Numbered from the stretch's first letter, positions 19,513-54,585 are shown. The stretch: 64,000 nucleotides of DNA from Patescibacteria group bacterium (GCA_038062675.1 JBBTWP010000001.1:48920-112919), one strand, 5' to 3'. Notes: a model not told the origin generated them from the letters alone. Numbers and translations: made by a program.

Positions 19513-20952
19513 ATGACCATAAATGAAATAGCTCAGCGTCACTATCTTTTAAAAAAAATGAGGAATTTCGTTATTCTCGCCACCATTTTGGCTTCAATGG
19601 GTTTATTTACTTACTACCAATTTTTTTATCATTTAATTTATACTGATCCTCAAAATAAGAATTGTCGTATCGACATTTACCCAAGTTATCATTATGAACA
19701 AGCTGACGTTGCGAGTACCATAGATACAATAAAGGTATATTCACCCGAATATTTTCAAAAAATTTGTCGCTATACGAAGGAGATTAAATATAACGAGTGT
19801 AAAGGTAATCCTCATGTGTGGGGTACTCGTGTAGGGGGTTGTGTCGGTACGTTTGACCAGATATGGCTTACGGATGTCCAAGTAAGTCCAACCATATTGG
19901 TGCACGAGACTTGTCATTTGCATCAAAATTATACATTTACCAAAGAGTTCAGTAAGGGTGATAGGGCAAAAATAGAAGCCGAGTGTTATAGTGAGCAAAA
20001 TAAATTTTTGGACATTATGACAAAAGATATGTCCGCTTCGTCAACCTCGGGCACCGTAATACCTGTCAAAAGTAGCACACCTTTTGATTCAAGAATCGAT
20101 TACATTACTGGAGACGTTCCTGTTGGTGTCGCCTTCGATAATATAACAAACTCAGTGTGGGTATCAAACTGGCGATCTGGAACGGTTAGTAAAATTAATA
20201 ATATTACTGGCGGGAAAGTTGACTACCCTGTTGGTGTTTTGCCGTATGGCGTTACTTTTGATAGTGTAACTAAATCAGTGTGGGTTGCAAGTTGGAGTTC
20301 GGAAGTAGTAAGTAAGGTGGATATTTTTACGGGAACTAAAACTGATTACCCTCTTAAAAGTAGGCCTTTTGGCGTTACTTTTGATTCAGTTACCAATTCT
20401 GTTTGGATTGCAGAATATTACGGCGATATTATTAAAATGAATATTTTTACTGGTTTAAAAGATAGTTATAACACTGAAGAAAGATTTATTAGTTTTCTTT
20501 CTGCGGCATTTGATCCAGTTACTAATTCTATTTGGATAACGAACCAGCATTCTAATTTCGTAATTAAGGTAAATGTATTTACAGGCACCAGAATTAGTTA
20601 TCCCGTCGGGGATGGTCCGTCTGGCTTGGCTTTTGATGGTATAACTAATTCAATATGGGTTGCTAATGCTGGTTCAAATACGGTGAGCAAAATAAATATT
20701 CACACAGGGGCAAGATCTGATTATGCAACCAATTTGAGCCCCGATTCAGTTGCTTTTGACCAAAAAACTAACTCAGTGTGGGTAACAAATAGAGATTCCG
20801 ATAATATCAGTAAGATTAATGTTCGTACTGGAGCTAAGATGGACTATTTTGCTGGAGATCGTCCTAGGGGTGTCGTTTTTGACCCAGTCACTAATTCTGT
20901 TTGGGTTGCGAACTCCGGCTCAAATACTATCAGTAAGATTAAAGTTCAGTAA
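19513..20952 (+). CDS. YVTN-type beta-propeller repeat protein with N-terminal HExxH domain
   Basis: N-terminal TM helix; HETCH motif at about aa 137; about 9 tandem ~42-aa repeats (..TNSVWVAN.GSNTVSKI..). Confidence 0.65.
   Translation: MTINEIAQRHYLLKKMRNFVILATILASMGLFTYYQFFYHLIYTDPQNKNCRIDIYPSYHYEQADVASTIDTIKVYSPEYFQKICRYTKEIKYNECKGNPHVWGTRVGGCVGTFDQIWLTDVQVSPTILVHETCHLHQNYTFTKEFSKGDRAKIEAECYSEQNKFLDIMTKDMSASSTSGTVIPVKSSTPFDSRIDYITGDVPVGVAFDNITNSVWVSNWRSGTVSKINNITGGKVDYPVGVLPYGVTFDSVTKSVWVASWSSEVVSKVDIFTGTKTDYPLKSRPFGVTFDSVTNSVWIAEYYGDIIKMNIFTGLKDSYNTEERFISFLSAAFDPVTNSIWITNQHSNFVIKVNVFTGTRISYPVGDGPSGLAFDGITNSIWVANAGSNTVSKINIHTGARSDYATNLSPDSVAFDQKTNSVWVTNRDSDNISKINVRTGAKMDYFAGDRPRGVVFDPVTNSVWVANSGSNTISKIKVQ
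20090..20945 (+). repeat. tandem ~126-bp coding repeats (YVTN blades)
   Basis: Recurring gtgtgggt..aa...gg..aa unit visible at DNA level inside the CDS. Confidence 0.6.
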
Positions 20953-30500: not shown

Positions 30501-31598
30501 ATGCCAAATAAAAAATCAACAACTTTAAAAAAACGTGTCTTCGTCGCCATGTCAGGGGGTGTAGACAGTTCCGTTGTTGCCGCGCTCTTGGTGAAAGAAG
30601 GGTACGCTGTCACCGGCGTTTTTATGAAAGTGTGGGAGCCTGATTTCTTGCCGTGCACATGGCGAGAAGAGCGACAGGATGCGATGCGTGTTGCCGCGCA
30701 TCTAGGGATACCACTTCTTACGTGGGATTTTGAACGCGAGTACAAAGAGGGTGTTGCCGACTACATGATTCGCGAGTACAAGGCAGGAAGGACCCCCAAT
30801 CCCGACGTGATGTGTAATAAGGAGGTAAAATTCGGTGCGTTTTTCCGTCGGGCTATCGCCATGGGGGCGGACTATGTTGCGACTGGTCATTATGCAAGAA
30901 TTGCGTTTGATCAACAGGAGGGCGTCTGTCGAATGTTTGCCGGAGTTGATGAGACAAAAGATCAGTCATATTTTTTGTGGACACTCGGGCAGGAAGAACT
31001 CAAAAAAACACTTTTCCCTATTGGGGAGTATAAAAAAATGAAAGTGCGGGCAATGGCAAAAAAGTTTGCATTGCCGACGGCAGAAAAAAAAGATAGCCAA
31101 GGGCTTTGCTTTGTGGGCAAGCTCGACATGAAAGATTTTCTTCTCCATTTTATGGAGAAAAAAGAAGGGGTGGTGGTGAATCAGGAAGGGGAACAGATCG
31201 GAACTCATCAAGGTGCATACTTTTATACACTCGGCGAGCGTCGCGGTTTTACGATTACAAAAAAAACGACTACCGAAACTCCTTACTACATTATTGCAAA
31301 AGATCTCGTTCAAAATACTTTGACCGTAGCACATAAAACGTCTGCGAAATCTTTGGAACAAGGAACAAAAGAAATACGAATCGCACAGATGAATGTGTGC
31401 GTAGGGGGTGTTTTCGATACTGAAAAAACCTATACAGCACGAATTCGCTATCATGGAGAGGCTCATGTCTGCAAAGCGCATAACCTGAATGGCACGTCTG
31501 CTATTTTGGAGTTTGAGAAACCTGTCCTTGTTGCTTCAGGGCAGTCTGTGGTGCTTTACGACAACGATGAGTGTGTGGGGGGTGGTATTGTGGAGTAA
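30501..31598 (+). CDS. mnmA: tRNA 2-thiouridine(34) synthase MnmA
   Basis: PP-loop VFVAMSGGVDSSV; catalytic cysteines. Confidence 0.9.
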   Translation: MPNKKSTTLKKRVFVAMSGGVDSSVVAALLVKEGYAVTGVFMKVWEPDFLPCTWREERQDAMRVAAHLGIPLLTWDFEREYKEGVADYMIREYKAGRTPNPDVMCNKEVKFGAFFRRAIAMGADYVATGHYARIAFDQQEGVCRMFAGVDETKDQSYFLWTLGQEELKKTLFPIGEYKKMKVRAMAKKFALPTAEKKDSQGLCFVGKLDMKDFLLHFMEKKEGVVVNQEGEQIGTHQGAYFYTLGERRGFTITKKTTTETPYYIIAKDLVQNTLTVAHKTSAKSLEQGTKEIRIAQMNVCVGGVFDTEKTYTARIRYHGEAHVCKAHNLNGTSAILEFEKPVLVASGQSVVLYDNDECVGGGIVE

Positions 31599-31623
31599 TG
31601 TCTCATTTGAAAGACTTCTTGCA

Positions 31624-32517
31624 ATGTGCGATGATATGGAGGATATGAAAAAAATACATCATAATGACAAAGCTGATGGCGGGGGTGTATGGGTCCTCAA
31701 GAATTCAGGCGAGCGAGAATTGTTTTCTTTAGAAAAACTCAAAAGGTCTCTCGTGCGATCTGGGGCGGATGCAAGTACCGTGGAACGTGTTGCGTCACAT
31801 ATTGTCCTAGAACTCAAGGACAATATGAAAACCTCGGCAATCTACCGCCACGCTTTCTCCATTCTTAAAAAGAATCAATATGTAGTTGCGCTTCGGTATA
31901 GTCTGCGTCGTGCGGTTGCCGATCTCGGTCCTAGTGGGTTTCCGTTTGAAAAGTTTGTTGCAGAAATTTTGAAGAGAAAAGGATATTCTACGCGAACGGG
32001 AATCATCTTGCCGGGGTTTTGTGTTTCTCATGAAGTTGATGTTCTTGCTGAAAAAGATAACAAACATATTTTTATTGAATGTAAATTCCATAATCAAGAG
32101 GGAATGAAAAGCGACGTAAAAGTGGCACTCTATGTGCATGCGCGGTTTCTCGATCTTCAAAAAGGTCACGAAAGAGGAGAACAATCTGCGTCAAGGATCC
32201 ATGAAGGGTGGCTCGTGACTAATACAAAACTCACTCATGATGCGATTCAGTATGCCAATTGCGCCGGACTCAACCTTATTGGTTGGGATTATCCTCACGA
32301 GGGGAACCTTCAAGATTTGATTTTAGAAACAGGAGTGCATCCACTCACATGCCTCATGAGTCTTTCGACTGCTCATAAAAACGAATTATTGCGACAGGGG
32401 ATTGTGATGTGCGTCGATCTCAAAAAGAAAGAGGAATCTTTGCAAAATCTCGGGCTTTCTCAGGAGAAAATTTCGAGTGTTATCAAGGAGGTGAATATGA
32501 TTTGTCGGGAAAACTAG
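31624..32517 (+). CDS. ATP-cone domain fused to Mrr-like restriction endonuclease domain
   Basis: N-terminal VWVLKNSGERELFSLEKLKRSL...VERVASHIVLEL is ATP-cone-like; C-terminal FEKFVAEILKRKGYS...HEVDVLAEKDNKHIFIECKFH is an Mrr_cat-like PD-(D/E)XK core. Confidence 0.6.
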   Translation: MCDDMEDMKKIHHNDKADGGGVWVLKNSGERELFSLEKLKRSLVRSGADASTVERVASHIVLELKDNMKTSAIYRHAFSILKKNQYVVALRYSLRRAVADLGPSGFPFEKFVAEILKRKGYSTRTGIILPGFCVSHEVDVLAEKDNKHIFIECKFHNQEGMKSDVKVALYVHARFLDLQKGHERGEQSASRIHEGWLVTNTKLTHDAIQYANCAGLNLIGWDYPHEGNLQDLILETGVHPLTCLMSLSTAHKNELLRQGIVMCVDLKKKEESLQNLGLSQEKISSVIKEVNMICREN

Positions 32518-43813: not shown

Positions 43814-44461
43814 ATGAATGATACAAACGATGATTTTAAAGGAAAAACACTCTCAGAAGACGCTCAAAACAGCAATGTTGCACAACCGCTTGACACCATG
43901 ACAGATGGTATATATAGTGATGATGTGCAGTTTGAGTCAACCGATGAGAGTGGCGAAAACCAGGCGCTCGTTTTGAAGAAAATGCGTGAAAAACTTCACA
44001 CATGCGAGTCGGAAAAGAAGGAATATCTCGATGGTTGGCAACGCATGCGCGCTGATTTTGCAAACGCTCGCAAAGAAGAAGATGCACGGCGCGGAGACTT
44101 GATAAAATTTGCTTCAGAAGGGCTCGTGGAAGACATGCTCCCCATTCTCGACAGTTTTGGAATGGCATTTGCCAACAAAGAATCATGGGAAAAAGTTGAT
44201 GCAAATTGGCGCAAAGGAGTTGAGTATATTCACAGTCAACTTCTCTCAGTTCTTGAGTCTCGTGGGCTTGCTCCCATCGGCATGGTAGGGGAAAAAGTAG
44301 ATCCGCGATTGCACATTGCGATTGATGTCATTCCCACTAAAGACGAAAAACAAGAAGATGTAGTTGCAGAAGTTATACAAAAAGGATACCGGCTTCATAG
44401 CAAAGTTATTCGTCCCGCAAAAGTAAAAGTATTCGGACATCTTGAAAAAGATTCACAATAA
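43814..44461 (+). CDS. grpE: nucleotide exchange factor GrpE
   Basis: Coiled coil plus conserved GrpE C-terminus (YLDGWQRMRADFANARKE). Confidence 0.9.
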   Translation: MNDTNDDFKGKTLSEDAQNSNVAQPLDTMTDGIYSDDVQFESTDESGENQALVLKKMREKLHTCESEKKEYLDGWQRMRADFANARKEEDARRGDLIKFASEGLVEDMLPILDSFGMAFANKESWEKVDANWRKGVEYIHSQLLSVLESRGLAPIGMVGEKVDPRLHIAIDVIPTKDEKQEDVVAEVIQKGYRLHSKVIRPAKVKVFGHLEKDSQ

Positions 44462-44504
44462 TAAAGTCGAATTTTAATCATTTTAAACAATTACGAACAA
44501 ACAT

Positions 44505-46409
44505 ATGGCAAAAATTTTAGGCATTGATCTTGGCACAACAAACTCTGCAATGGCAATCATTGAGGGAGGTGAACCGCGCATTGTGGAGAATATTGAAGGA
44601 GTGCGCACTACACCATCCGTTATTACGGTTTCAAAGAGTGGAGAGCGTCTTGTGGGGCTCTTGGCGAAGCGTCAAGCAGTTACCAATCCAAAGAACACCT
44701 TGTATGGTGTGAAGCGTTTGATCGGCCACACCTTTGAAGACGATGGTGTGCAGCGCGATAAAAAGACTTCACCGTTTGCCATTGAGCGTTCGGAAGACGG
44801 TGGGGTGAAGGTAAAAATGGGGGACCGATTGTATCGCCCTGAGGAGATTTCTGCTATGGTGCTCCAGAAGCTCAAGCAAGATGCTGAGGCAAAGCTTGGC
44901 GAAAAAATTACCGAGGCGGTGATTACGGTACCTGCATATTTTAACGATTCTCAGCGCAAGGCAACAAAAGATGCTGGGCAGATTGCCGGTTTTGACGTAA
45001 AGCGCATCATCAACGAGCCTACTGCAGCGGCACTTGCATACGGTTTTAATAAAAAGAAAGATGAAAAGATTGTCGTCTATGACTTTGGTGGAGGAACGTT
45101 CGACGTTTCCGTGCTTGAGGTTGGTGATGATGTAATTGAAGTGAAGTCGACCGATGGTGATGTGCACATGGGCGGAGAAGACATTGATCAAAAAATCATT
45201 CGCTTTATTGCGGACGAATTTAAAAAGGAGTCCGGTATCGATGTTTCAAATGACATCATGGCCCTTCAGCGCCTCAAAGAAGCGGCAGAGAAAGCAAAGC
45301 ATGAGCTCTCGACTACTCTCGACGCGGAGATTAACATTCCGTTCATCACCTCAACAGCAGAAGGTCCTCAGCACTTACAGCTTAAAATGTCGCGCACTAA
45401 ACTCGAAGAACTCGCGCGTGAGTATATAGACAAATCAATCGAGATCACCAAGCGTGCTCTCGCGGCGTCACCGTTCAAAAAAGAAGACATCAATGAAATC
45501 ATCATGGTGGGTGGACAGACGCGCATGCCGGCGATTGTTAACGCTGTAAAAGAACTCTTCGGCAAGGAGCCTAATCGCTCAATCAATCCGGACGAAGTGG
45601 TGGCTATTGGTGCGGCTATTCAAGCAGGTATTCTTCAGGGAGACGTAAAGGATGTGTTGCTCTTGGATGTTATCCCACTTTCTCTCGGCATTGAAACATT
45701 TGGCAATGTGGCAACTAAACTTATTGAAAAAAATACAACAATCCCTGCGTCGCGTTCGCAAGTTTTCTCTACAGCTTCTGACAATCAAACTTCTGTTGAA
45801 ATTCATGTGGTGCAAGGCGAGCGTCCTATGGCACCCGACAACAAATCTCTCGGACGATTCATTCTTGATGGCATTCCGCCATCTCCGCGTGGACTTCCGC
45901 AAGTGGAAGTTACCTTTGATGTGGACGCAAACGGTATTCTTCAGGTGAAAGCAAAAGAAAAAACAACCGGCAAGGAACAGTCTATTCGTATCGAGGCAAG
46001 TTCGGGCTTGACCAAGGACGACATTGCGCGCATGCAAAAAGAAGCTGAGATGAATGCGGCAGAGGATGCAAAGAAGCGCGATGCAGCTGAAGTGAAGAAT
46101 ACTCTTGAGCAACTTGTGTATACCGCAGAAAAATCATTGCGCGATGGTGGCGATAAAGTTCCTGCTGATATTAAAACTGCAGTTGAAGGAAAGCTTGCGC
46201 TTGCAAAGACGGCAAGTGTCGGTTCAAACATTGAAGAAATGAAAAAAGCATCCGGTGAACTTTCAGCTGAACTTCAAAAGATTGGCGAGGCGATGATGAA
46301 AAACCAAGAAGCGCCAAAAGAGGGCACGCAAGGTGCGCCTGAAGCGAAGGATGGTGAAGGAACCGTGCGTGATGCAAACTACACAGAGGGGGAGGAGGGG
46401 AAAAAGTAG
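44505..46409 (+). CDS. dnaK: molecular chaperone DnaK (Hsp70)
   Basis: [17 protein letters not shown] and [13 protein letters not shown] motifs. Confidence 0.97.
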
Positions 46410-46553: not shown

Positions 46554-47630
46554 ATGGCAAAAGATTATTACAAAATATTGGGGGTAGATAAAAAGGCAAG
46601 CGCGGACGAAATTAAAAAAGCGTTCCGTAAGCTCGCGCACCAGCATCACCCCGACAAAGGGGGTGATGAGAAGAAGTTCAAGGAAGCCAGCGAAGCGTAC
46701 CAAGTGCTCTCGGACGACAAAAAGCGTGCCTCGTATGATACGTATGGAGAAGCGGGGGCGCAAGGGTTTGGTGGGCACGGAGGAGGGCAGGGTTTCGATC
46801 CTTCAGGCTTCGGTGGTTTTAACACGCAGGGGTTTAGTGGCGATATTGACCTCAATGACATTTTCGGAGAGTTTTTTGGCGGTGGACGCCGAACGGCTCC
46901 TGAAAAGCGTCGTGGGCGAGATGTTTCTGTTGACCTTGAAGTTTCTTTTTCCGAAGCAATTTTCGGCGTGAAGCGCAAGGTGCTCATCACCAAAACTTCT
47001 TCTTGCACCACGTGTGATGGTACGGGCGCAAAGAGTGGTACTCCAATGAAGACCTGCGCCACCTGTGAAGGAAAGGGGAGTATTGAGGAAACAAAACGTT
47101 CGTTCTTGGGCGTCTTTTCACAAACACGCGAATGTTCGACATGTGCTGGTGTGGGGAAAATCCCTGAACAAAAATGTGCGGAATGCAAAGGACATGGCGT
47201 GCTTCGTCGTGAGAGTGAGCTTACCATTGAAATTCCAGCAGGTATCCAACATGGAGAGATGGTGCGCCTTTCTGGCGCGGGGGAGGCGATACAGAATGGA
47301 ACTTCGGGTGACTTGTATGTGAGAATCCGTGTCGCCCCACACAAAGTATTCCATCGTGAGGGACAAAATCTCGTTATGCATCTTTCAGTGAAATTCACTG
47401 ACGCTATTTTGGGCGCCGAATATCCAATAGAAACATTGGACGGCAAAATAGATTTGTCGATTCCGAAAGGGGTGTCGTCGGGTGAGGTTCTGCGTGTGCG
47501 CGGCAAGGGGGTGCCCATGGGCGCCAAGCATCGTGGTGACCTCCTCATAAAACTTGAAATAAAAACCCCCACCAAACTTTCCCGCCAAGCACTCAAGCTT
47601 GTTGAGGGGTTGAGAGGGGAGGGGGTGTAG
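46554..47630 (+). CDS. dnaJ: molecular chaperone DnaJ
   Basis: J-domain HPD motif; G/F region; four CxxCxGxG repeats. Confidence 0.95.
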
Positions 47631-47643
47631 GGGAACTAATGTT

Positions 47644-48711
47644 ATGGTAAAAAATTATGCACTTAAGTGGATTAAAGATATGACACCATACTCCCCTCCG
47701 CTGGGCGGTAGGTTGAATTTTTCTGGCGACTTACTTGATTTTAATGAGAGAGTGACGACGCCGTCAAAAAAAGTAACAACAGCACTCATCGCATTTTTTC
47801 GCAAAGGAAAGATACAGAGGTACCCAGAATATGCTGATTTGCAAGAGAAGATTTCTAAATATGCAAAGGTGCTTGCAAATCAGGTAATGATTACAAACGG
47901 TTCTGACCACGGCATTGACGTTATTTTTCGGACTTTTGTTGGTAAAAATGACACCATTGTAATACCTGCGCCAACTTTCCCAATGTTTATGCAGTACGCA
48001 CAGATGATAGGGTGTCGAGTTGCAAAAGTTCCCTACGAGAAAATAGACTTCAAGTTTCCCGCGGCAGAAATTCTTCAATTGCTTAAAAACAAGAATCCCA
48101 AGCTTATTATTATCTGTAATCCAAATAATCCAACAGGCAGTGTTATTTCAATGAAAGATATTGAGGTAATCGTACTAAAGGCTCCTGATTCGATTTTTAT
48201 GATAGACGAGGCATACTTTGAGTTTTCGGGGATAAGCGCAACCTCGCTTCTTAAGAAATTCCCGAACATCGTCATCGTCAGAACTTTCTCCAAGGCTTTT
48301 GGGCTTGCATCACTACGTATAGGATATGTTATCGCCAGCGAGCAACACATTGAAGAGATGATGAAAGTTCGTGGGCCATACGCCGTAAACATGGCTGCAC
48401 ATATTGCAGCAAATGCCGCGCTTGATGATATTGAGGATATGAAAATGTATGTGCAAGAAGTAATGACAAAAGCAAAACCTCTTCTCGAAACATTTTTCAA
48501 AAAAAATAGTATTCCATTTTATAAATCTGGAGCAAATTTTATACTCTTCGAACCCAAAAATAAACAAGAAGTATATGAGCATTTTAAAAAGAACGATATC
48601 TTAGTTCGCCCACAGCGCGCCCCAGAGATACAAGACATGCTTCGCGTGAGTATTGGAACCGTTAAGCAGATGAACCGATTTATTAAGGTATATTCACAAT
48701 TATTGGGTTAG
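47644..48711 (+). CDS. class I/II PLP-dependent aminotransferase, HisC-like
   Basis: NPNNPTG motif and RTFSKAFGLASLRIGY PLP-lysine motif. Confidence 0.8.
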   Translation: MVKNYALKWIKDMTPYSPPLGGRLNFSGDLLDFNERVTTPSKKVTTALIAFFRKGKIQRYPEYADLQEKISKYAKVLANQVMITNGSDHGIDVIFRTFVGKNDTIVIPAPTFPMFMQYAQMIGCRVAKVPYEKIDFKFPAAEILQLLKNKNPKLIIICNPNNPTGSVISMKDIEVIVLKAPDSIFMIDEAYFEFSGISATSLLKKFPNIVIVRTFSKAFGLASLRIGYVIASEQHIEEMMKVRGPYAVNMAAHIAANAALDDIEDMKMYVQEVMTKAKPLLETFFKKNSIPFYKSGANFILFEPKNKQEVYEHFKKNDILVRPQRAPEIQDMLRVSIGTVKQMNRFIKVYSQLLG

Positions 48712-48748
48712 AAAAATCGCTAACGAATGGGCACTTGACAAGTAGCCG

Positions 48749-48785
48749 CATAAAAAGGTATGCTCTTTACATGGTAGTAGCGCTC
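48749..48785 (+). promoter_or_regulatory. TTGACAAGT...CATAAAA promoter-like motif, copy 1
   Basis: cacttgacaagtagccgcataaaaaggtatgct; the same motif recurs at 50636 and 51235. Confidence 0.4.
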
Positions 48786-48875
48786 AAAAGCATCTTTGTC
48801 GGATATTCATATAGCTATTATAGCTCACGCAGATGAGACTTGTTTAAGGTGCTGAAAAAATAATTTCAACCTCTC

Positions 48876-48908
48876 AAACTGGCCTCATCCGAGGCCAGTT
48901 TGTTCTTT
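48876..48908 (+). terminator. rho-independent terminator
   Basis: aaactggcctc-atcc-gaggccagttt plus T-run. Confidence 0.8.
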
Positions 48909-48948
48909 ATACGATTAAAATCGGATTATAATTTATAGGAGGTGTGCC

Positions 48949-49641
48949 ATGTTTGTTGCGAACTCTCTTGATGGAGGTATTTGCAAAATATCAGATTGGT
49001 CCGAGCAGCTGGCTACGCTTACTCGGACTGCCTGGACAGGTAAAGATGGTAAATGTTATTTTCCTTACCTACCCCTTACTACAAAGGAACATTGGGAACA
49101 ATCTGTGCTTAAGCAATGGGAAAGTAATGAGATGGTTTCATGGGTTCTAGTTTCAGGCCATGGGCGAATCCTTGCTCACGTGGCTGTTGTTAAAAGGCAC
49201 GGATATCACGAGCTCGGTAGGTTTGTTGCTTATCCTGATAGTCCTAAAAATGCAGTCACCAGTCTTTGTTATGAAGCGATGAGCTACGTTTCAGTTATTG
49301 GAGACCCCGTACTTGTTGAAACGACTCAGGCTCACACTGCTTCGCAATTTATTTGCGAGAAGATTGGGCTCAGATTTGCGGGCATTGGATTTCTTTCCGT
49401 TGTTGATGATATATCGTGGGACATAATTTACTACGATAATCTCGATGTTGAAGATTTTGTTCCGCAAGAAGGTATTCTCGGGGACCCCCTCCGTAAACCA
49501 GTTGTTCGTCTACCAGAGCATAAAGACAGACTTGAGATAGTTCGCGGAATTCTTTCTTGTGAGCAGGGTGGAGATATTCCACCATCAAAATTTCATGTCT
49601 TGCCACATCGACTTGAAGTAGTTCGATTAATCGTTAGTTAA
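48949..49641 (+). CDS. hypothetical protein, possibly GNAT-fold N-domain
   Basis: Strong SD AGGAGGTG; GNAT-like segment ...HGYHELGRF...QFICEKIGLRFAGIG; weak call. Confidence 0.35.
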   Translation: MFVANSLDGGICKISDWSEQLATLTRTAWTGKDGKCYFPYLPLTTKEHWEQSVLKQWESNEMVSWVLVSGHGRILAHVAVVKRHGYHELGRFVAYPDSPKNAVTSLCYEAMSYVSVIGDPVLVETTQAHTASQFICEKIGLRFAGIGFLSVVDDISWDIIYYDNLDVEDFVPQEGILGDPLRKPVVRLPEHKDRLEIVRGILSCEQGGDIPPSKFHVLPHRLEVVRLIVS

Positions 49642-49671
49642 CTTGTTTTTTGGGTTAAAATATAGTATAAT

Positions 49672-49703
49672 AGCATGGAGATTCAAATCTCCATGCTATT
49701 TTT
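49672..49703 (+). terminator. hairpin plus T-run abutting the next start codon
   Basis: agcatggagat-tcaa-atctccatgct-attttt, then the ATG at 49704. Confidence 0.6.
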
Positions 49704-50639
49704 ATGACAGAAATTGAAGAATTATTGATTGAGCTTGTAAAGATACCATCTGTCTCTGGGCAGGAGAAAAAGGTCGGTGACTTTATTATTTCACAATTAG
49801 CTGATATAAAAGGTCTGAAAATTCAAAAACAGAAAGTTAGCAAGGATAGATTTAATTTAGTTGTTAAAAAGGGCAAGTCAAAAAAATGGCTAGTTGCTCA
49901 CATGGATACAGTTCCAGGAAACTTGCCTTGTCGTATAACAAAAGACAAAATATTTGGACGTGGTGCTTGTGACAATAAGCAAAGCATCGCTGCCTCCATT
50001 ATCCTTGCCCGCCAACTAGAAAATATTAATATTCTTTTTACGGTCGGAGAAGAGGTTGATTTTTCAGGAGCACAGAAGGCTTTCGAGAAAAGAACATGTG
50101 GAGACGCTGAGCTCGTAGTTGTGCAAGAACCTACTTGCTTCAAGATAATTACTGGTCAATGTGGCGTTATAGCTTTTTCAATTGAAACTACTGGACGAGA
50201 GCAACATTCGAGTCTGGATAAACCAAATAATGCTATTCATAAACTTTCTGAAGTTCTTTCCACCTTAATCAAGAAAAACTGGGCGGCTTTTAATATAGGA
50301 ATAATAGGAGGAGGGATTGCAGAAAATGTTGTTGCTGGTAGTGCTCGTGCGATGATCTCAGTTCGACCTCGTGATGCAAAAGAGCAAAAAGAAATTATGT
50401 TTGAACTAAAACGGCTACCTGCAAAAGTTGTTATTAATAAAAATATTCCCTCTTTTCGTTGTAATCTAGGTTATCCAGAGGCAATAGCCACTCATTTCTC
50501 TGAAATGGGATTTTTCAAGAATAGTATCCAATTTGGTGCTGGTGATATTCGGAATGCGCACACACAACAAGAATATATTCTGCGAAAAGATTTAAATATT
50601 TTACCAAAAAAATTATTAGAAATTTTATCGCGTCATTGA
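49704..50639 (+). CDS. M20 family metallopeptidase/deacylase (ArgE/DapE-like)
   Basis: VAHMDTVPG metal site and GRGACDNKQSIAA motif. Confidence 0.75.
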   Translation: MTEIEELLIELVKIPSVSGQEKKVGDFIISQLADIKGLKIQKQKVSKDRFNLVVKKGKSKKWLVAHMDTVPGNLPCRITKDKIFGRGACDNKQSIAASIILARQLENINILFTVGEEVDFSGAQKAFEKRTCGDAELVVVQEPTCFKIITGQCGVIAFSIETTGREQHSSLDKPNNAIHKLSEVLSTLIKKNWAAFNIGIIGGGIAENVVAGSARAMISVRPRDAKEQKEIMFELKRLPAKVVINKNIPSFRCNLGYPEAIATHFSEMGFFKNSIQFGAGDIRNAHTQQEYILRKDLNILPKKLLEILSRH

Positions 50640-50711
50640 CAAGTTCGTCATAAAATGTGAGGATAGCAGGGTGTTAAGGGTCAGTTCGTTAATGTTTTTA
50701 AGGAGATAAGC
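50629..50711 (+). promoter_or_regulatory. duplicated promoter/leader copy A (TTGACAAGT..CATAAAATGTGAG..AATGTTTTTAAGGAGATA)
   Basis: About 75% identical to 51228-51312, including the identical RBS region. Confidence 0.55.
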
Positions 50712-51146
50712 ATGAAGGTATTATTTATTTGCAAAAATAATCAATTCCGTAGCCAAATGGCTGCGTCAATATACAATCAGATAACGGGAACGGAAGATGC
50801 CGATTCTGCTGGTACATATGTCGGTTCTGTTGCTGTGCCAGAGGGGACTGTTATTGAGGGTTACTTTCGCACCCCCGACTTCTTTGAACTTATGGAGGAG
50901 AATGGGATGAACATAAGGGGCAATCGTACAAAAAAGCTTTTACCCGAAATGATCGAAAGTGCCAGCATTGTTGTTTCGATTGTGCAAGAACCGTTTATTC
51001 CAGATTTTCTACGTAACAATGAAAAAGTAATATGGTGGGGAATAGCCGATCCTTCCTTTGCTACACGCGAGGTCTCAGAAAAAACATACAGTGAGATAAA
51101 AAGCTTGGTTGAACAACTCGTTTCATCTGAGGGTGCGAGTCTCTAA
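50712..51146 (+). CDS. low-molecular-weight phosphotyrosine phosphatase / ArsC-like
   Basis: P-loop CKNNQFRS (CX5R-S) at the N-terminus. Confidence 0.75.
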   Translation: MKVLFICKNNQFRSQMAASIYNQITGTEDADSAGTYVGSVAVPEGTVIEGYFRTPDFFELMEENGMNIRGNRTKKLLPEMIESASIVVSIVQEPFIPDFLRNNEKVIWWGIADPSFATREVSEKTYSEIKSLVEQLVSSEGASL

Positions 51147-51182
51147 TAAAAACGCGGAATATTTCCGAAGTTCTTTTCAGAA

Positions 51183-51209
51183 GCCAGCAGAAATGCTGGT
51201 TTCTTTTTA
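51183..51209 (+). terminator. rho-independent terminator
   Basis: ccagca-gaaa-tgctgg plus tttcttttt. Confidence 0.6.
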
Positions 51210-51227
51210 TACATTGGAGCCAAAATT

Positions 51228-51312
51228 TTACCTATTGACAAGTTGAACATAAAATGTGAGTATTGCGTAGGAGTCGGAGTTATTTTAAGCAATGTTTTTA
51301 AAGGAGATAGAC
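51228..51312 (+). promoter_or_regulatory. duplicated promoter/leader copy B
   Basis: Shares ttgacaagtt, cataaaatgtgag and aatgtttttaaaggagata with copy A. Confidence 0.55.
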
Positions 51313-52560
51313 ATGAAGAAACTTGATATATTCGACAATTTAGTAGGTCGTGGCTTTGTAAAACAGTGTTCAAACGAGACTGCTTTACGCGAGCTGTTCG
51401 GTAAAGGACCGTTGGTCTTTTACGCTGGATTTGATCCAACAGCCGACAGTCTTCATGTGGGCAGTTTGGTTCCAATAATGGCGATGGCCCACATCCAGAG
51501 AGCTGGGCATACTCCGATATGTATTGTTGGGGGAGGCACGGCATTAATTGGTGACCCAAGCGGCAAAACAGAAACACGTCGCATGTTGACCGTAAATGAG
51601 ATCGACCACAACAAGGAAGGTCTCTTTGGGCAACTGCAGCGGTACTTGTCGTTTGGCGAAGGGAAAGGAATGATACTCAATAATGCCGACTGGCTTGTTG
51701 GGTTGAAATATATCGAATTCCTTCGAGACATTGGCCGTTACTTTAAGGTGAATGAAATGATACGAGTAGAATCGTATCGCCTTCGTCTTGAACGGCAGGA
51801 AGGATTGTCGTTTATCGAGTTTAACTATCAGCTACTTCAAGCGTATGACTTTTTGGAACTTCATGATCGTTACGGTTGTGTGTTGCAGATTGGCGGTGAC
51901 GATCAATGGGGGAATATGGTCGCTGGTACTGGGTTAATTCGGCAAGTTCGAAAGGCCGAGGCTCATGTTTTGACCTTCCCATTGCTTGAAACAGCAAACG
52001 GAAGGAAAATGGGCAAGACTGAGAATGGCACCATTTGGCTTGATGCAACAAAAACTGCGCCATATGACTTTTATCAGTACTGGAGAAATACTGATGACCG
52101 GGATGTAATTAAGTTTTTAAAGCTTTTTACGTTCTTGTCCTCGGAGGAAATAAGTCAGTACGAGAAGTTGAGTGGTGCGGAGCTTAAGCCCGCAAAAGAG
52201 CGCCTTGCATTTGAGGCTACAAAAATTACCCATGGAGAGCAGGCAGCAAAGGATTCAGCAGAGGCTGCTTCTCAGTTATTCGGTAATTCTAGTGGTTTGA
52301 ATTCAAACGCGGTGCCAACTGTTGAAATTAGGCAAGCCGTTCTTGCTCAGGGTGTCTCTGTTCCTGACTTGTTCAGGCTTGCTGGGCTAGTAAAAGGTAC
52401 TTCTGAGGCTCGGCGCCTTGCAGACCAAGGAGGTGCTTATGTTAATGAAAAGCGCGTTACGTCTGATCAGATGTTCTATAAATCTGATATGGTTGATGGT
52501 GTGCTACTTCTCCGACAAGGGAAAAAGCACTACTGTCGTGTGGTACTAGCTCTTGAATAG
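51313..52560 (+). CDS. tyrS: tyrosyl-tRNA synthetase
   Basis: HVGS(L) HIGH variant, KMGKT KMSKS motif, S4-like C-terminus. Confidence 0.9.
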   Translation: MKKLDIFDNLVGRGFVKQCSNETALRELFGKGPLVFYAGFDPTADSLHVGSLVPIMAMAHIQRAGHTPICIVGGGTALIGDPSGKTETRRMLTVNEIDHNKEGLFGQLQRYLSFGEGKGMILNNADWLVGLKYIEFLRDIGRYFKVNEMIRVESYRLRLERQEGLSFIEFNYQLLQAYDFLELHDRYGCVLQIGGDDQWGNMVAGTGLIRQVRKAEAHVLTFPLLETANGRKMGKTENGTIWLDATKTAPYDFYQYWRNTDDRDVIKFLKLFTFLSSEEISQYEKLSGAELKPAKERLAFEATKITHGEQAAKDSAEAASQLFGNSSGLNSNAVPTVEIRQAVLAQGVSVPDLFRLAGLVKGTSEARRLADQGGAYVNEKRVTSDQMFYKSDMVDGVLLLRQGKKHYCRVVLALE

Positions 52561-52569
52561 AGGTGCCAA

Positions 52570-53451
52570 ATGAGGAAAATAAAAGTTGGATATCTGGGGC
52601 CTGGTACTAATACTTTTGGGTACCAGGCCCTCCAGAAGTTTTTTGCAGGGAAAGGCTTCAAAAACATCGAGGCGGTGGCATTTACAAACCACAGCGAAGT
52701 GTGTTTAGCGGTCGGCAATATGGAAGTTGACTACGGTGTTGTTGCGATTGAGAATGTTATTGACGGGGTTGTGGCGGAGACTATCCGCGCTATTGAAAGT
52801 GTTGACAGTCACCTCGGCCTAAAAATCTGGGGCGAAGTCATCCTGTCGATAGAACTATTCTACATGAGCAAGAGTGGGGATGAATCACTTGTAAAAAAAC
52901 TCCTCTCTCATCCGACAGCTATTGGGCAATGCCGAAAGTTGGTATCCATGCTTCAAGAGCGTGGAATTCCAATCGAGGTACAGCCCTCGACATCTCGTGG
53001 TGCTGAGCTTGCATCAAGTGATTCTGAGGTTGCAGCACTTGCTTCCAAAGTTGCCCTAAGGAACTTTGGACTTAAGCTTATTCGCAAAGAGTCTGTTACT
53101 GACTACAAGAACAGTGCTACACGGTTCTGGGTTCTTGGAAAGGAGCATGCACGACTTGGCGAGGATACGGCATTAAAGTTTAAAACATGCTTCCTTGCCA
53201 ACCTTGAGCAAACAGCATCAGGAGTGCTTCATAAGACGCTTGGAGTTTTTGCAGAAAAAGGGATTAGCGTTCTCCTTGTGTACCCTAGCCCTATTTTGGG
53301 GAAAAAATGGGAATACACGTTTGTTCTTGAAGTAGGCGGTCATGTTTCGGAATCACGCATGATTGAGGCGTGGGAAGATTTTCGAAAACTTGGCATATCG
53401 CTCTTACCCCTGCGTTTCTTGGGGTCTTATCTTGATACAACATCAGGATGA
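52570..53451 (+). CDS. pheA: prephenate dehydratase with ACT domain
   Basis: PDT domain (VGYLGPGTNTFGYQA) plus C-terminal ACT. Confidence 0.85.
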   Translation: MRKIKVGYLGPGTNTFGYQALQKFFAGKGFKNIEAVAFTNHSEVCLAVGNMEVDYGVVAIENVIDGVVAETIRAIESVDSHLGLKIWGEVILSIELFYMSKSGDESLVKKLLSHPTAIGQCRKLVSMLQERGIPIEVQPSTSRGAELASSDSEVAALASKVALRNFGLKLIRKESVTDYKNSATRFWVLGKEHARLGEDTALKFKTCFLANLEQTASGVLHKTLGVFAEKGISVLLVYPSPILGKKWEYTFVLEVGGHVSESRMIEAWEDFRKLGISLLPLRFLGSYLDTTSG

Positions 53452-53454
53452 AAA

Positions 53455-53487
53455 AAACCGGGTTGAAATATACCCGGTTTTTCTTTT
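53455..53487 (+). terminator. rho-independent terminator
   Basis: aaccgggt-tgaaatat-acccggtt plus T5. Confidence 0.8.
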
Positions 53488-53522
53488 GCTAGTTAACCTC
53501 CTGTTTTGAGGTGTATTTTGAC

Positions 53523-53892
53523 TGTACTATTCACGGGCGCAGGGGAAGCTATTCAGAATGGCACGGCAGGTGACTTGTATGTCAGAATTCACGTCGCCCC
53601 ACATAAAGTATTCCATCGTGAGGGACAAAATCTCGTTATGCATCTTTCAGTGAAATTCACTGACGCTATTTTGGGCGCCGAATATCCAATAGAAACATTG
53701 GACGGCAAAATAGATTTGTCGATTCCGAAAGGGGTGTCGTCGGGTGAGGTTCTGCGTGTGCGCGGCAAAGGGGTGCCCATGGGCGCCAAGCACCGTGGCG
53801 ACCTCCTTATAAAGCTTGAAATAAAAACCCCCACCAAACTTTCCCGCCAAGCACTCAAGCTTGTTGAAGAACTGCGGGGGGAAGGTGTATAA
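53523..53892 (+). pseudogene. truncated duplicate of the dnaJ 3' end (C-terminal domain fragment)
   Basis: About 95% nt identity to 47270-47630, including a ~170-nt identical core; no J-domain or zinc finger. Confidence 0.85.
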
Positions 53893-53895
53893 TGA

Positions 53896-54585
53896 ATGTA
53901 CATGAATTTATTTTCTTGGACCCCGTTTATTTTGCAGACAATGGTATACCCGTTCACATGGGTCGGGTTAAGATTTTTTACACACATTCGTATCTTGGGA
54001 GAAGAAAATTTAGTGGGACATACACAAGGAGTAATCTTTGCTGTTAATCATCTCAGTGAACTTGACCCAATTCTAATCCCTGCAACACTGAATCCTTTTT
54101 CTCCTTTAATGCCTATGTTTTATACCGCTCGTGAGCGGTTTTTTTATGAAAAAAAAGGGCTTGCACAGTATTTTTATGGAGGCACCTTTTTTAAACTTTG
54201 GGGAGCATACACTGCGTATGTTGGGACAGGGGATCTCGCTTTGTCGCTTAGGCACCATATTCGCATTCTGAAAAAAGGAAAGAGCGTATGCATTTTCCCT
54301 GAGGGAGGTAAAATTCCAGAAGGAGTTATTATTGAGGGGAAAACCGGTGTTGCGTATTTGTTGTGGAGAACAGGGGTGCCAGTAATTCCTGTTGCTATGC
54401 GCGGACACTATAAAATGACTTCTCGAGAGTTTTGTGCGCGTACGCGCACAATCACGGTTTCATATGGAAAACCCATCACAAAGCAAGAACTTTTTAATTT
54501 GCGCCCAGATCCTGGGGTGGTACCCACGCGAGAAGAACTTCGTACTGCCACACATATCATTATGTCGCGTATTCGTGAGATGTAA
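53896..54585 (+). CDS. plsC: 1-acyl-sn-glycerol-3-phosphate acyltransferase (LPLAT family)
   Basis: NHLSELD (HX4D) and FPEGG motifs. Confidence 0.8.
   Translation: MYMNLFSWTPFILQTMVYPFTWVGLRFFTHIRILGEENLVGHTQGVIFAVNHLSELDPILIPATLNPFSPLMPMFYTARERFFYEKKGLAQYFYGGTFFKLWGAYTAYVGTGDLALSLRHHIRILKKGKSVCIFPEGGKIPEGVIIEGKTGVAYLLWRTGVPVIPVAMRGHYKMTSREFCARTRTITVSYGKPITKQELFNLRPDPGVVPTREELRTATHIIMSRIREM

Follow-up and report, generated by a model that had tools for sequence, protein, structure and literature searches.

A six-gene block between two dnaJ 3' ends in a Patescibacteria group bacterium: a possible scar of recombination between related lineages

The DNA analyzed here (64,000 nucleotides, GCA_038062675.1, JBBTWP010000001.1:48920-112919; referred to as the window) contains a six-gene housekeeping block lying between an intact dnaJ and a 5'-truncated second copy of the dnaJ 3' end. 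The locus does not look like a self-mobile element; it has the appearance of a scar left by recombination between related lineages. Our preferred explanation, to which we give about an even chance, is that DNA was exchanged between diverged Patescibacteria by recombination anchored in dnaJ. Two diverged dnaJ alleles sharing a perfectly identical tract point, at the level of sequence, to host recombination between lineages and not to a mobile element.

Organization of the dnaJ-plsC locus

All features described are on the plus strand and are numbered from the first nucleotide of the window. The grpE and dnaK genes (43814-46409; Pfam; ordered as in relatives L007 and L008) make up the upstream portion of the conserved rpsI-grpE-dnaK-dnaJ neighborhood, which is not rearranged. 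They are followed by an intact dnaJ (46554-47630; MEK7538318.1) encoding 358 residues with J domain, zinc finger and C-terminal domains (Pfam). The first-pass annotation had placed a structural anomaly inside the grpE-dnaK-dnaJ neighborhood; the operon is in fact undisrupted, and the insertion lies 3' of the dnaJ stop codon.

The first block gene, a hisC-type aminotransferase (47644-48711; TIGR01141, 297.7 bits, above cut-off), begins with an ATG 13 nt past the dnaJ stop, with no terminator in the gap, and its product is 76-85% identical at the amino acid level to those of L087, L088, and L089. It is followed by a conserved non-coding unit (48735-48908) comprising a promoter-like site, approximately 110 nt and an intrinsic terminator. 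This unit, 92-94% identical in L087 and L090, is a candidate small RNA and the putative left border of a variable cargo slot. The slot (48949-50639) holds a 230-residue ORF and a 311-residue M20 (ArgE/DapE-like) hydrolase, and is filled by other genes in relatives. Beyond it lie genes for an LMW-PTP/ArsC-like protein (50712-51146; Pfam LMWPc; 93% amino acid identity to L087), the tyrosine-tRNA ligase TyrS (51313-52560; TIGR00234, 393 bits; 89% to L087), and a pheA-type prephenate dehydratase with an ACT domain (52570-53451; Pfam PDT and ACT; 78-82% to L087 and L088). A 27-nt promoter-like motif is found before the LMW-PTP gene (50635-50661) and again before tyrS (51234-51260). The pheA intrinsic terminator (53453-53490) forms the right edge of the block. 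Five of the six original gene calls (HisC, M20, LMWPc, TyrS, and PDT with ACT) stand, whereas a GNAT-like assignment for the 230-residue ORF does not, as this ORF has no family match in Pfam, NCBIfam or PHROGs.

Between the pheA terminator and the second dnaJ copy is a 45-nt junction (53491-53535) that is homologous neither to dnaJ nor to the sequence following pheA in relatives. Within it are an SD-like GAGGTG (53508-53513) and two TTG codons (53506 and 53518); no microhomology is evident where the pheA terminator is joined to dnaJ codon 241. The second copy, hereafter the relic (53536-53892), spans codons 241-358 plus the stop in an open frame. It had been described as a 5'-truncated C-terminal DnaJ piece, in agreement with its match to DnaJ_C (Pfam PF01556, E 6.6e-32), and is annotated by NCBI as a 124-residue protein. 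Its last approximately 30 nt include a promoter-like TTGAAG-18-TATAAT and the SD region of the plsC-type acyltransferase gene that stands directly downstream (53896-54585; Pfam; probable start at the conserved ATG 53902). Judging from the dnaJ-plsC adjacency in L007, L008, and L009, plsC is the ancestral neighbor 3' of dnaJ.

Divergence and identity of the two dnaJ 3' ends

A repeat search of the 64-kb window returned a direct repeat (47274-47573 and 53536-53835; 94% over 300 nt, spacing 6262). This was the only long repeat family apart from intragenic NHL repeats. Codon-by-codon comparison showed a sharp onset of homology at 47274 and 53536, and an end at the stop codons (47630 and 53892). 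The full repeat is 357 nt with 28 differences (92.2% identity); the last approximately 360 nt of dnaJ do recur as initially reported, but the reported identity of about 95% was too high, and the reported start of the second copy at 53523 was 13 nt too far left. Copy 1 (47274-47630), the final 119 codons of dnaJ, divides into a diverged left flank (47274-47342), a perfectly identical core (47343-47506, equivalent to 53605-53768), and a diverged right flank (47507-47630), within which the variant list reveals a second identical stretch of 53 nt. The core measures 164 nt, close to the 170 nt first estimated. Given the divergence of the flanks, the probability of such identity is approximately 1e-10. 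The core is incompatible with flank divergence and, on these sequence statistics, represents a recombination or conversion tract, as had been proposed.

The differences between the copies are mostly synonymous, as previously noted, with 21 codons differing synonymously and three non-synonymously. Counted as changes outside the core, approximately 24 are synonymous versus three non-synonymous, where random mutation would be expected to give 25% synonymous (approximately 75% non-synonymous). The left flank has dS 1.40 and dN 0.04, the right flank dS 0.61 and dN 0.011, and dN/dS is approximately 0.02-0.03 in both. Relative to the 357 nt of copy 1, the truncated copy contains no indels or stops, and at two of the three amino acid differences it is the relic that carries the clade-consensus residue; the relic thus shows no signs of decay. 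The copies look like two functional dnaJ alleles, long separated, that may have been joined by a crossover or conversion tract. With the synonymous excess and low dN, they do not resemble an in situ duplicate that subsequently decayed. Simple segmental duplication followed by gene conversion, the other mechanism suggested at first, is also contradicted: two copies in the same genome do share an identity tract, but the neutral decay expected of a non-functional copy outside such tracts is not seen, given flank dS of 0.6-1.4, the low dN/dS, and the consensus residues retained in the truncated copy.

Low dN/dS would also follow, even from an old duplication, if the truncated copy were a functional stand-alone DnaJ C-terminal-domain protein under purifying selection. 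Its frame is open across 119 homologous codons and retains clade-consensus residues, the SD-like GAGGTG stands 4 nt ahead of TTG 53518, and the NCBI pipeline annotates a protein. However, L090, a close relative that is 96.5% identical downstream, keeps just 33 nt of the relic, and no other genuine stand-alone homolog was found among 5.8 billion proteins, with the exception of a phage-linked piece in L097; short matches are contig-end or frameshift artifacts. The relic is furthermore situated directly after a strong terminator and lacks the J domain needed for action on DnaK. We consider a functional role for the protein very unlikely.

The same arrangement is present in the NCBI MAG, where proteins across the locus are consecutive (MEK7538318 to MEK7538326), and in six contigs, the longest of 265 kb, from independent Hainich groundwater assemblies. 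An assembly artifact or wrong phase, in which a true dnaJ-plsC locus and a separate molecule or strain with the block were mis-joined via the 164-nt core, would be favored by a core longer than usual k-mer sizes and by the shorter contigs, several of which break exactly at the edge of the core. Such breaks are, however, expected of a true repeat. The six contigs and the MAG agree through both copies, the variants flanking the core on either side are specific to each copy, and L090, from another sample, independently joins block-type genes to a plsC-side dnaJ remnant. An artifact is hardly credible on this evidence.

Relatives, mobility genes and the origin of the block

In all three of the closest reference genomes (L007, L008, and L009; DnaJ 60-69% identical, order rpsI-grpE-dnaK-dnaJ-plsC), dnaJ is directly followed by plsC. 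Given this empty site, the outcome of a comparison suggested in the first-pass annotation, the six-gene block is an insertion with respect to the ancestral gene order. Among 80 relatives, there is no case of a second dnaJ piece, nor of a block gene in the 10 kb that follow dnaJ. In L087 and L088, the hisC...LMWP-tyrS-pheA cluster (76-93% amino acid identity) occupies other chromosomal sites with other flanking genes, and no dnaJ repeats surround relatives' copies. Homology to the relatives' blocks begins at the hisC ATG and stops at the pheA terminator. Relatives of the block proteins are 78-93% identical, versus 75% for the best database DnaJ, a comparison that does not include the block relatives' own DnaJ. 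From 53860 onward, L090 and the window share 96.5% identity, but the LMWP of L090 is only 81% identical and its cargo is different; its order is LMWP, a 33-nt dnaJ relic, and plsC, with no tyrS-pheA. Within pheA, the nearest relative of the block shifts from L087 to L088. The L090 identities and the switch in pheA provide comparative evidence for recombination among lineages at this locus.

The 64-kb window contains no integrase, transposase, phage gene, tRNA or inverted repeat, and no excisionase or conjugation gene was found in the block or the window. No recombinase family is represented in the block genes or approximately 50 other ORFs of the window. Of the machinery for competence and homologous recombination, only RecR and DnaB were seen in the window; comEC, dprA, and recA, if the organism has them, are encoded elsewhere. 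The original statement that no integrase is present holds for the block and the entire window. GC content and codon usage of the block, which had been suggested as a possible contrast with the rest, are native-like and indistinguishable from the remaining window; any donor would consequently be a close relative. Two candidates were rejected: a transposon or IS insertion, given the lack of terminal inverted repeats and transposase, and a recognizable mobile element in general, given that relatives hold the cluster elsewhere, the window has no mobility genes, and composition is native-like.

The repeats had initially been likened to attL and attR. This comparison is valid for the topology of integration, an intact gene with a displaced 3' end, but not for a discrete element, in view of the housekeeping cargo, missing mobility genes and native-like composition. 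The locus could in principle be what is left of a temperate phage or island, a site-specific integrative element that entered dnaJ at its 3' end and supplied a new one. The intact end of dnaJ would then be attL and the relic attR, the integrase and other element genes having since been lost or replaced, or the recombinase having acted in trans. The match in topology is exact, comprising direct repeats of the target 3' end with an intact 358-residue DnaJ, a displaced 3' fragment, and an empty site in relatives. Bifidobacterium prophages use the dnaJ2 3' end and rebuild the gene (PMC6109161). In the related Patescibacterium L097, a fusion joins a 5'-truncated dnaJ piece (codons ~231-351, 76% amino acid identity to the relic) to an HNH endonuclease; the ORF that comes next shares 47% identity (E 9e-31) with gp50 of Pseudanabaena phage Pan5, which likewise comes after HNH in that phage. 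However, no recombinase is encoded. The insert does not consist of element-type genes foreign to relatives' core genomes; it is a chromosomal cluster, including tyrS, that is conserved in relatives at other sites without dnaJ repeats. At 357 nt, the repeat is 10 times the length of the 35-bp att site in Bifidobacterium, homology reaches 69 nt upstream of the identical core, and truncation points are unequal (codon ~231 in L097, 241 in the window); a viral contig bearing a dnaJ fragment was not found. Taken together, an integrative element is a distinctly unlikely source.

The arrangement might also have arisen in situ with no foreign DNA, by template switching or by tandem duplication and differential loss, the flanks being overwritten later. 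The block would have been moved or copied behind dnaJ from the same genome, with dnaJ codons 241-358 re-copied, and the identical core would be what remains of initially identical copies whose flanks were replaced through allelic recombination with block-free relatives. Empty-site tracts must end in the dnaJ 3' end (copy 1) or start in the relic (copy 2), and this confinement by the repeat would produce diverged flanks with low dN/dS around an untouched core. The scheme explains the architecture without a donor having dnaJ-hisC adjacency, and agrees with the native-like block composition, the absence of mobility genes, and the evidence of frequent recombination at the locus. On the other hand, it takes at least three events, a complex duplication-insertion and two independent imports from donors 12-19% diverged. 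Its simple form is contradicted by the synonymous excess and the consensus residues in the relic, and neither a second block copy nor a vacated former locus is visible in the 64-kb window. An in situ origin is possible but rather unlikely.

In the recombination scar that we prefer, a conserved cluster (hisC, cargo slot, LMW-PTP, tyrS, and pheA) would have recombined into the ancestral dnaJ-plsC junction via dnaJ 3' homology. Two dnaJ alleles of diverged Patescibacteria lineages would meet, one becoming the 3' end of the intact gene and the other surviving as the relic from codon 241, ahead of plsC. We infer an inter-lineage donor from a junction that lies in a homologous stretch with sides resembling diverged alleles (flank dS 0.6-1.4, mosaic identity to relatives). 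The data accommodate two routes equally well. In one, a circularized donor fragment (a dnaJ 3' piece plus the block) would integrate by a Campbell-type single crossover. In the other, linear DNA would be taken up from a relative with dnaJ and then the block; a homologous crossover upstream would be paired with illegitimate joining of the donor DNA beyond pheA to resident dnaJ codon 241. The 164-nt core may be the crossover or heteroduplex-repair tract, or result from later gene conversion between the copies. Once DNA had been taken up, RecA-type recombination by the host would be enough, with no need for a dedicated recombinase or mobile element. The relic may persist because the event was recent, and probably also because its last approximately 30 nt serve plsC translation and perhaps carry promoter signals. 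Patescibacteria undergo natural transformation, which proceeds through ComEC and involves homologous recombination (PMC10633639), and the genes for competence and homologous recombination are general for the phylum (PMC10633639, PMC12455944). Most detected horizontal transfer is from Patescibacteria to Patescibacteria, with translation and chaperone genes enriched (PMC12455944), and mosaic donor segments can result from single transformation events (PMC13344027).

Several observations weigh against the scar. The donor arrangement that both routes need, a dnaJ 3' end followed by hisC with no relic, is absent from 80 genome loci, the contexts of close HisC homologs, and 80 metagenome loci, in which close relatives are sparsely sampled. 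The native-like composition would also suit a block that originated entirely within the genome. With saturated outgroups, it was not possible to polarize which parts were resident and which incoming. Homologous recombination is inefficient at 12-19% divergence, the tight left junction at the hisC ATG is not predicted, and the L090 arrangement is left without explanation. Phase across the 164-nt core depends on the assemblers' use of read pairs.

The 164-nt core would in principle permit RecA-dependent looping-out. It is interesting to speculate that the block and one dnaJ 3' copy together form a 6.26-kb mobilizable cassette of biosynthetic and essential genes (tyrS, pheA, and hisC), with no recombinase of its own, that loops out, re-integrates via dnaJ homology, and is exchanged between Patescibacteria, perhaps with phage-like help as hinted by L097. 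On this view, housekeeping modules would be swapped in these reduced genomes at a dedicated docking site, the dnaJ 3' end. We view such a cassette with strong doubt.

Patescibacteria have tiny genomes with few recognizable mobile elements. The locus bears on how they gain and reshuffle genes, as a base-resolved example of a housekeeping cluster, including an aminoacyl-tRNA synthetase, relocated into a conserved operon neighborhood. The insertion is predicted from sequence to put hisC under heat-shock operon transcription, and leaves plsC dependent on predicted signals within a gene relic. While the event is of a known kind and reveals no new mechanism, it may serve as a case study and as a strain-tracking marker in the Hainich aquifer.

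Comparison with known systems

Prophage 21 and element e14 are inserted in the 3' part of the Escherichia coli coding gene icd, supplying an alternative 3' end with mainly synonymous differences that keeps the gene intact, and displacing the native 3' fragment to the far end. Both are phage-derived and integrate through their own integrase by site-specific crossover. The dnaJ locus likewise has an intact target gene and a truncated, displaced 3' copy beyond the insert, but differs in having no recombinase or phage gene, a housekeeping insert and a 164-nt homogenized tract.

In enterobacteria, gene conversion acts between the dispersed duplicates tufA and tufB, both of which are full-length, functional and have long been kept similar. 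A perfect-identity tract within diverged direct repeats is common to both cases; here, in contrast, only one copy is full-length, the other being a truncated relic, and the flanks resemble alleles of different lineages. Tandem duplication with differential loss, a gene-order change described mainly for organelle genomes, would similarly yield dnaJ, the block, a partial dnaJ and plsC without foreign DNA. However, it predicts copies that are identical at first and neutral decay of the partial one, which the flanks do not match.

Bifidobacterium prophages at the dnaJ2 3' end are 39-43 kb and inducible, encode a tyrosine integrase, and reconstruct the gene through 35-bp att sites with a 7-bp crossover region; gene conversion between attachment sites and host alleles has been invoked for them (PMC6109161). 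The target gene family and the gene end are the same as in the present locus, but the insert described here comprises 5.9 kb of non-phage genes, bounded by a repeat of 357 bp.

Campbell-type single-crossover integration and homology-facilitated illegitimate recombination (HFIR) in natural transformation were worked out by experiment in organisms such as Acinetobacter and Streptococcus. While the process at dnaJ is deduced from sequence alone, and the donor arrangement was not found, the locus resembles both in having no element-encoded enzymes and, putatively, DNA from a related organism. Here too, a homologous anchor at one junction is combined with a non-homologous junction at the other, where the pheA terminator meets dnaJ codon 241.

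Two copies of the dnaJ 3′ end

A repeat search of the window returned a single long direct repeat (47274–47573 versus 53536–53835); the only other long repetition in the 64 kb lies inside a gene and consists of NHL repeats. The NHL repeats comprise five diverged 76-nt units with 123-nt spacing (20128–20947) within the ORF of a β-propeller protein (19513–20952), and are ordinary repetition within a gene. Codon-by-codon comparison of the dnaJ ends reveals an abrupt onset of homology at 47274/53536 that extends to both stop codons (47630 and 53892), with 28 differences over 357 nt (92.2% identity) and a perfectly identical core of 164 nt (47343–47506 in the first copy). Copy 1 (47274–47630) is the end of an intact 358-residue DnaJ. 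Copy 2 (53536–53892) encodes a 5′-truncated DnaJ_C fragment from codon 241 (Pfam E 6.6e-32). The pheA terminator and then 45 nt of unrelated sequence lie before it, and plsC follows a few bases downstream. The first-pass annotation had described this repeat correctly in general, but copy 2 starts at 53536 rather than 53523, and the identity is 92%, not 95%.

The window lies on a 265-kb contig from a Hainich groundwater metagenome (ERZ1292624); the genome is one of the Patescibacteria (CPR), and those nearest to it among named relatives are Nomurabacteria, Paceibacterota, and Yonathbacteria. Identical arrangements are carried by six contigs of independent assemblies and by the NCBI MAG, whose accessions are consecutive (DnaJ, MEK7538318; PheA, fragment, and PlsC, ending in 324, 325, and 326). 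This agreement makes a wrong assembly phase barely credible. Shorter contigs start precisely where the core begins and then display copy 2 variants, a break consistent with the behavior of assembly graphs at genuine repeats. Both the repeat and the insertion are genuine, with the phase across the 164-nt core resting on the assemblers' use of read pairs.

A chromosomal cluster at the dnaJ–plsC junction

Six genes lie between the copies: a hisC-type aminotransferase exceeding the TIGR01141 cut-off, a 230-residue ORF, a short M20 ArgE/DapE-like hydrolase, an LMW-PTP/ArsC-like protein (LMWP), tyrS (matching TIGR00234), and an ACT-domain prephenate dehydratase (pheA). Pfam, NCBIfam, and PHROGs place the 230-residue ORF in no family, leaving its initial label as GNAT-like unsupported. 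Outside the block, the window carries ordinary core genes (ATP synthase, leuS, alaS, ribosomal proteins, rpoA, and the dnaK operon). In GC content and codon usage the block falls inside the range of the window and gives no signal, and tRNA and Rfam scans of the window produced no matches. A Mrr-like restriction endonuclease ORF is present at 31489–32517; in its longest frame it shares approximately 110 nt with the end of mnmA, and its true start is probably further downstream.

In the three closest relatives (DnaJ 60–69% identical), rpsI-grpE-dnaK-dnaJ is followed by plsC within 7–290 nt, with a histidine kinase beyond plsC, matching the window. Of the 80 species-level relatives surveyed, all fetched through DnaJ, none has a block gene within 10 kb downstream of dnaJ, or a second dnaJ piece. 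This makes the block an insertion at an ancestral dnaJ–plsC junction, and the three closest genomes provide the empty site that the first-pass annotation had named as the mark of one.

HisC homologs of 75–85% identity were identified on Logan contigs, and their contexts are the same cluster at other chromosomal sites. In one (L087), the cluster is preceded by a histidine kinase, a NUDIX gene, and a hypothetical gene, comprises hisC (83%), two other genes, LMWP (93%), tyrS (89%), and pheA (78%), and is followed by another kinase, trpS, and aspS. In a second (L088), it comprises hisC (76%), a small ORF, an AAA_33 kinase, LMWP (75%), tyrS (81%), and pheA (82%). The hypothetical gene upstream of hisC is homologous among relatives, and no repeats flank their clusters. 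Homology to the window block runs from the hisC ATG to just past the pheA terminator. Given these boundaries, the recurrence of the cluster elsewhere, and the lack of flanking repeats there, the block is a lineage-specific yet chromosomal housekeeping cluster and not the cargo of a mobile element. In a metagenome scan, TyrS had no close relatives (identity ≤57%), and tyrS and pheA are linked in one of 80 metagenome loci.

Transcription signals and block edges

At the left edge, hisC begins 13 nt past the dnaJ stop (47628–47646) and lacks the 80–115 nt upstream region of its relatives. As no terminator intervenes in this short gap, hisC is probably co-transcribed with the grpE-dnaK-dnaJ heat-shock operon. 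Between hisC and the cargo genes lies a candidate small RNA unit (48735–48908), with a promoter-like TTGACA-18-TATGCT, approximately 110 nt, and a strong intrinsic terminator. The unit is at least 90% identical in L087 and two further relatives (L089 and L090), with adjoining genes at approximately 80%. It has no Rfam match even at E ≤ 1, and its consensus fold contains 31 pairs with one compensatory change (three sequences only). A 27-nt motif, ATTGACAAGTTnnnCATAAAATGTGAG, occurs twice exactly (0 expected), just upstream of LMWP (50635–50661) and tyrS (51234–51260). It occupies the same two positions in L087, and is probably a shared promoter or operator. The interval between the conserved noncoding unit and the first motif (48909–50634) is a variable cargo slot, so called because its genes differ in every relative: the 230-residue ORF and M20 hydrolase in the window, ATP-grasp-like and Asparaginase_2 genes in L087, a small ORF and AAA_33 kinase in L088, and an AAA_33 kinase in L090.

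At the right edge, the last approximately 30 nt of the dnaJ relic hold the plsC Shine–Dalgarno region and a promoter-like TTGAAG-18-TATAAT (53864–53893). ATG 53902, not 53896, seems to be the conserved start of plsC; the transcript would then have a very short leader or none. L090, from another sample (Logan SRR34294545, 1–2645), is 96.5% identical in nucleotide sequence from 53860 through plsC and the next gene. Its order is AAA_33 kinase (as in L088), LMWP (81% identical), a 75-nt spacer, the last 33 nt of dnaJ, and plsC; tyrS and pheA are absent between LMWP and the dnaJ remnant. L090 thus keeps exactly the part of the relic with the plsC Shine–Dalgarno region and promoter-like site, and it is plausible that this end is retained for the predicted plsC signals.

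Short DnaJ C-terminal matches elsewhere include three full-length genes cut by contig ends (L094–L096) and two frameshifted or stop-containing genes (L092 and L093), all rejected as stand-alone fragments; only contig L097 carries a true truncated piece. That the relic is itself a functional gene would agree with its Shine–Dalgarno-like site, its open frame, and its annotation as a protein by NCBI. However, L090 has lost all but its last 33 nt, and searches turned up no true stand-alone homolog, making this very unlikely.

Divergence of the copies and origin of the insertion

Outside the core, the two dnaJ ends differ by approximately 24 synonymous and 3 nonsynonymous changes; if the same codons mutated at random, only 25% of the changes would be synonymous. 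Values of dS and dN are 1.40 and 0.04 in the left flank (23 codons), and 0.61 and 0.011 in the right flank (41 codons). The fragment contains no indel or stop. At two of the three amino acid differences the relic has the near-universal residue of relatives, and the intact dnaJ the unusual one. Simple tandem duplication followed by decay is rejected, given mostly synonymous changes where drift predicts mostly nonsynonymous ones. The duplication with gene conversion raised in the first-pass annotation is, in its simple form, disfavored by the same counts and by the consensus residues of the relic, which looks like part of a functional dnaJ long evolved in a different lineage.

None of 54 third positions differs in the core, compared with 22 of 64 in the flanks (P about 1e-10). 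Given the flank divergence, the core must be a recombination product, whether the tract of a crossover or heteroduplex or the trace of later conversion. Comparison of the 28 variant sites with 11 outgroup dnaJ genes gave them no polarity, synonymous sites being saturated. GC3 is higher in copy 1 than copy 2 in both flanks, a difference too weak to tell chimeric from whole-allele copies. An in situ duplication-insertion, the flanks of which were later overwritten by allelic recombination, agrees with these data, as any tract from an empty-site relative would have to end inside the repeat, but it requires at least three events and is unlikely.

Several features point to exchange at the locus. 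L090 is nearly identical to the window from 53860 onward, yet upstream of its dnaJ remnant has a far more diverged LMWP and different neighboring genes. LMWP and tyrS of the block are closest to L087, and part of pheA to L088. Block proteins have relatives at 78–93% identity, while the best DnaJ among 5.8 billion proteins is 75% identical, a gap suggestive, though not conclusive, of exchange. The contigs with the closest full-length DnaJ (75%), two from different JGI samples (L100, 4941–5002; L101, 2203–2263), are uninformative on gene order past dnaJ: both end approximately 61 nt beyond its stop. The shared end point hints at a repeat or variable junction 3′ of dnaJ there too.

The topology also agrees with a decayed site-specific element at the dnaJ 3′ end, and L097 (1–1083, ENA ERZ18641798), from a related organism, joins its dnaJ piece to phage-like genes. 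This piece (codons ~231–351, 76% amino acid identity to the relic) has stops upstream and is fused in frame to an HNH endonuclease. The following ORF is 47% identical to gp50 of Pseudanabaena phage Pan5, which likewise follows an HNH in that phage. The contig is a putative phage-like element adjoining a dnaJ 3′ fragment. However, its truncation point (codon ~231) differs from that in the window (codon 241), the insert is core-like, and no integrase, transposase, or phage gene is present in the 64-kb window. Scanning viral contigs with either the fragment or an alignment yielded only 26–34% identical DnaJ-like genes. We consider a decayed element distinctly unlikely. Of the integrating element first proposed, the insertion and its integration-like topology stand and the noted lack of an integrase is borne out, but there is no recombinase or phage gene and the insert is a chromosomal cluster. 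A composite transposon is rejected, as the window has no transposase.

The explanation favored here, at about even chances, is that diverged lineages exchanged DNA through host recombination. Experiments show that Patescibacteria can be transformed by way of ComEC and homologous recombination (PMC10633639), surveys find transfer mostly within the phylum and enriched in translation genes and chaperonins (PMC12455944), and mosaic tracts may remain after transformation (PMC13344027). The block could have arrived by Campbell-type integration of a molecule bearing a dnaJ 3′ piece and the block. Alternatively, in a one-sided homologous import, a relative's dnaJ and block would have replaced the 5′ part of the resident dnaJ, with an illegitimate join of imported DNA to resident codon 241 at the far end. 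The topology fits both equally, and with saturated outgroups they are inseparable here. Each needs a donor with dnaJ directly 5′ of hisC, an adjacency not found in the 80 relatives, the contexts of HisC homologs, or the metagenome loci. Bifidobacterium prophages use dnaJ 3′ ends as att sites (PMC6109161), which speaks for a decayed element; the window involves the same gene end, but its repeat exceeds known att sites tenfold in length. Read instead as host-mediated exchange, the dnaJ–block locus would be a further instance of an already known kind of event.
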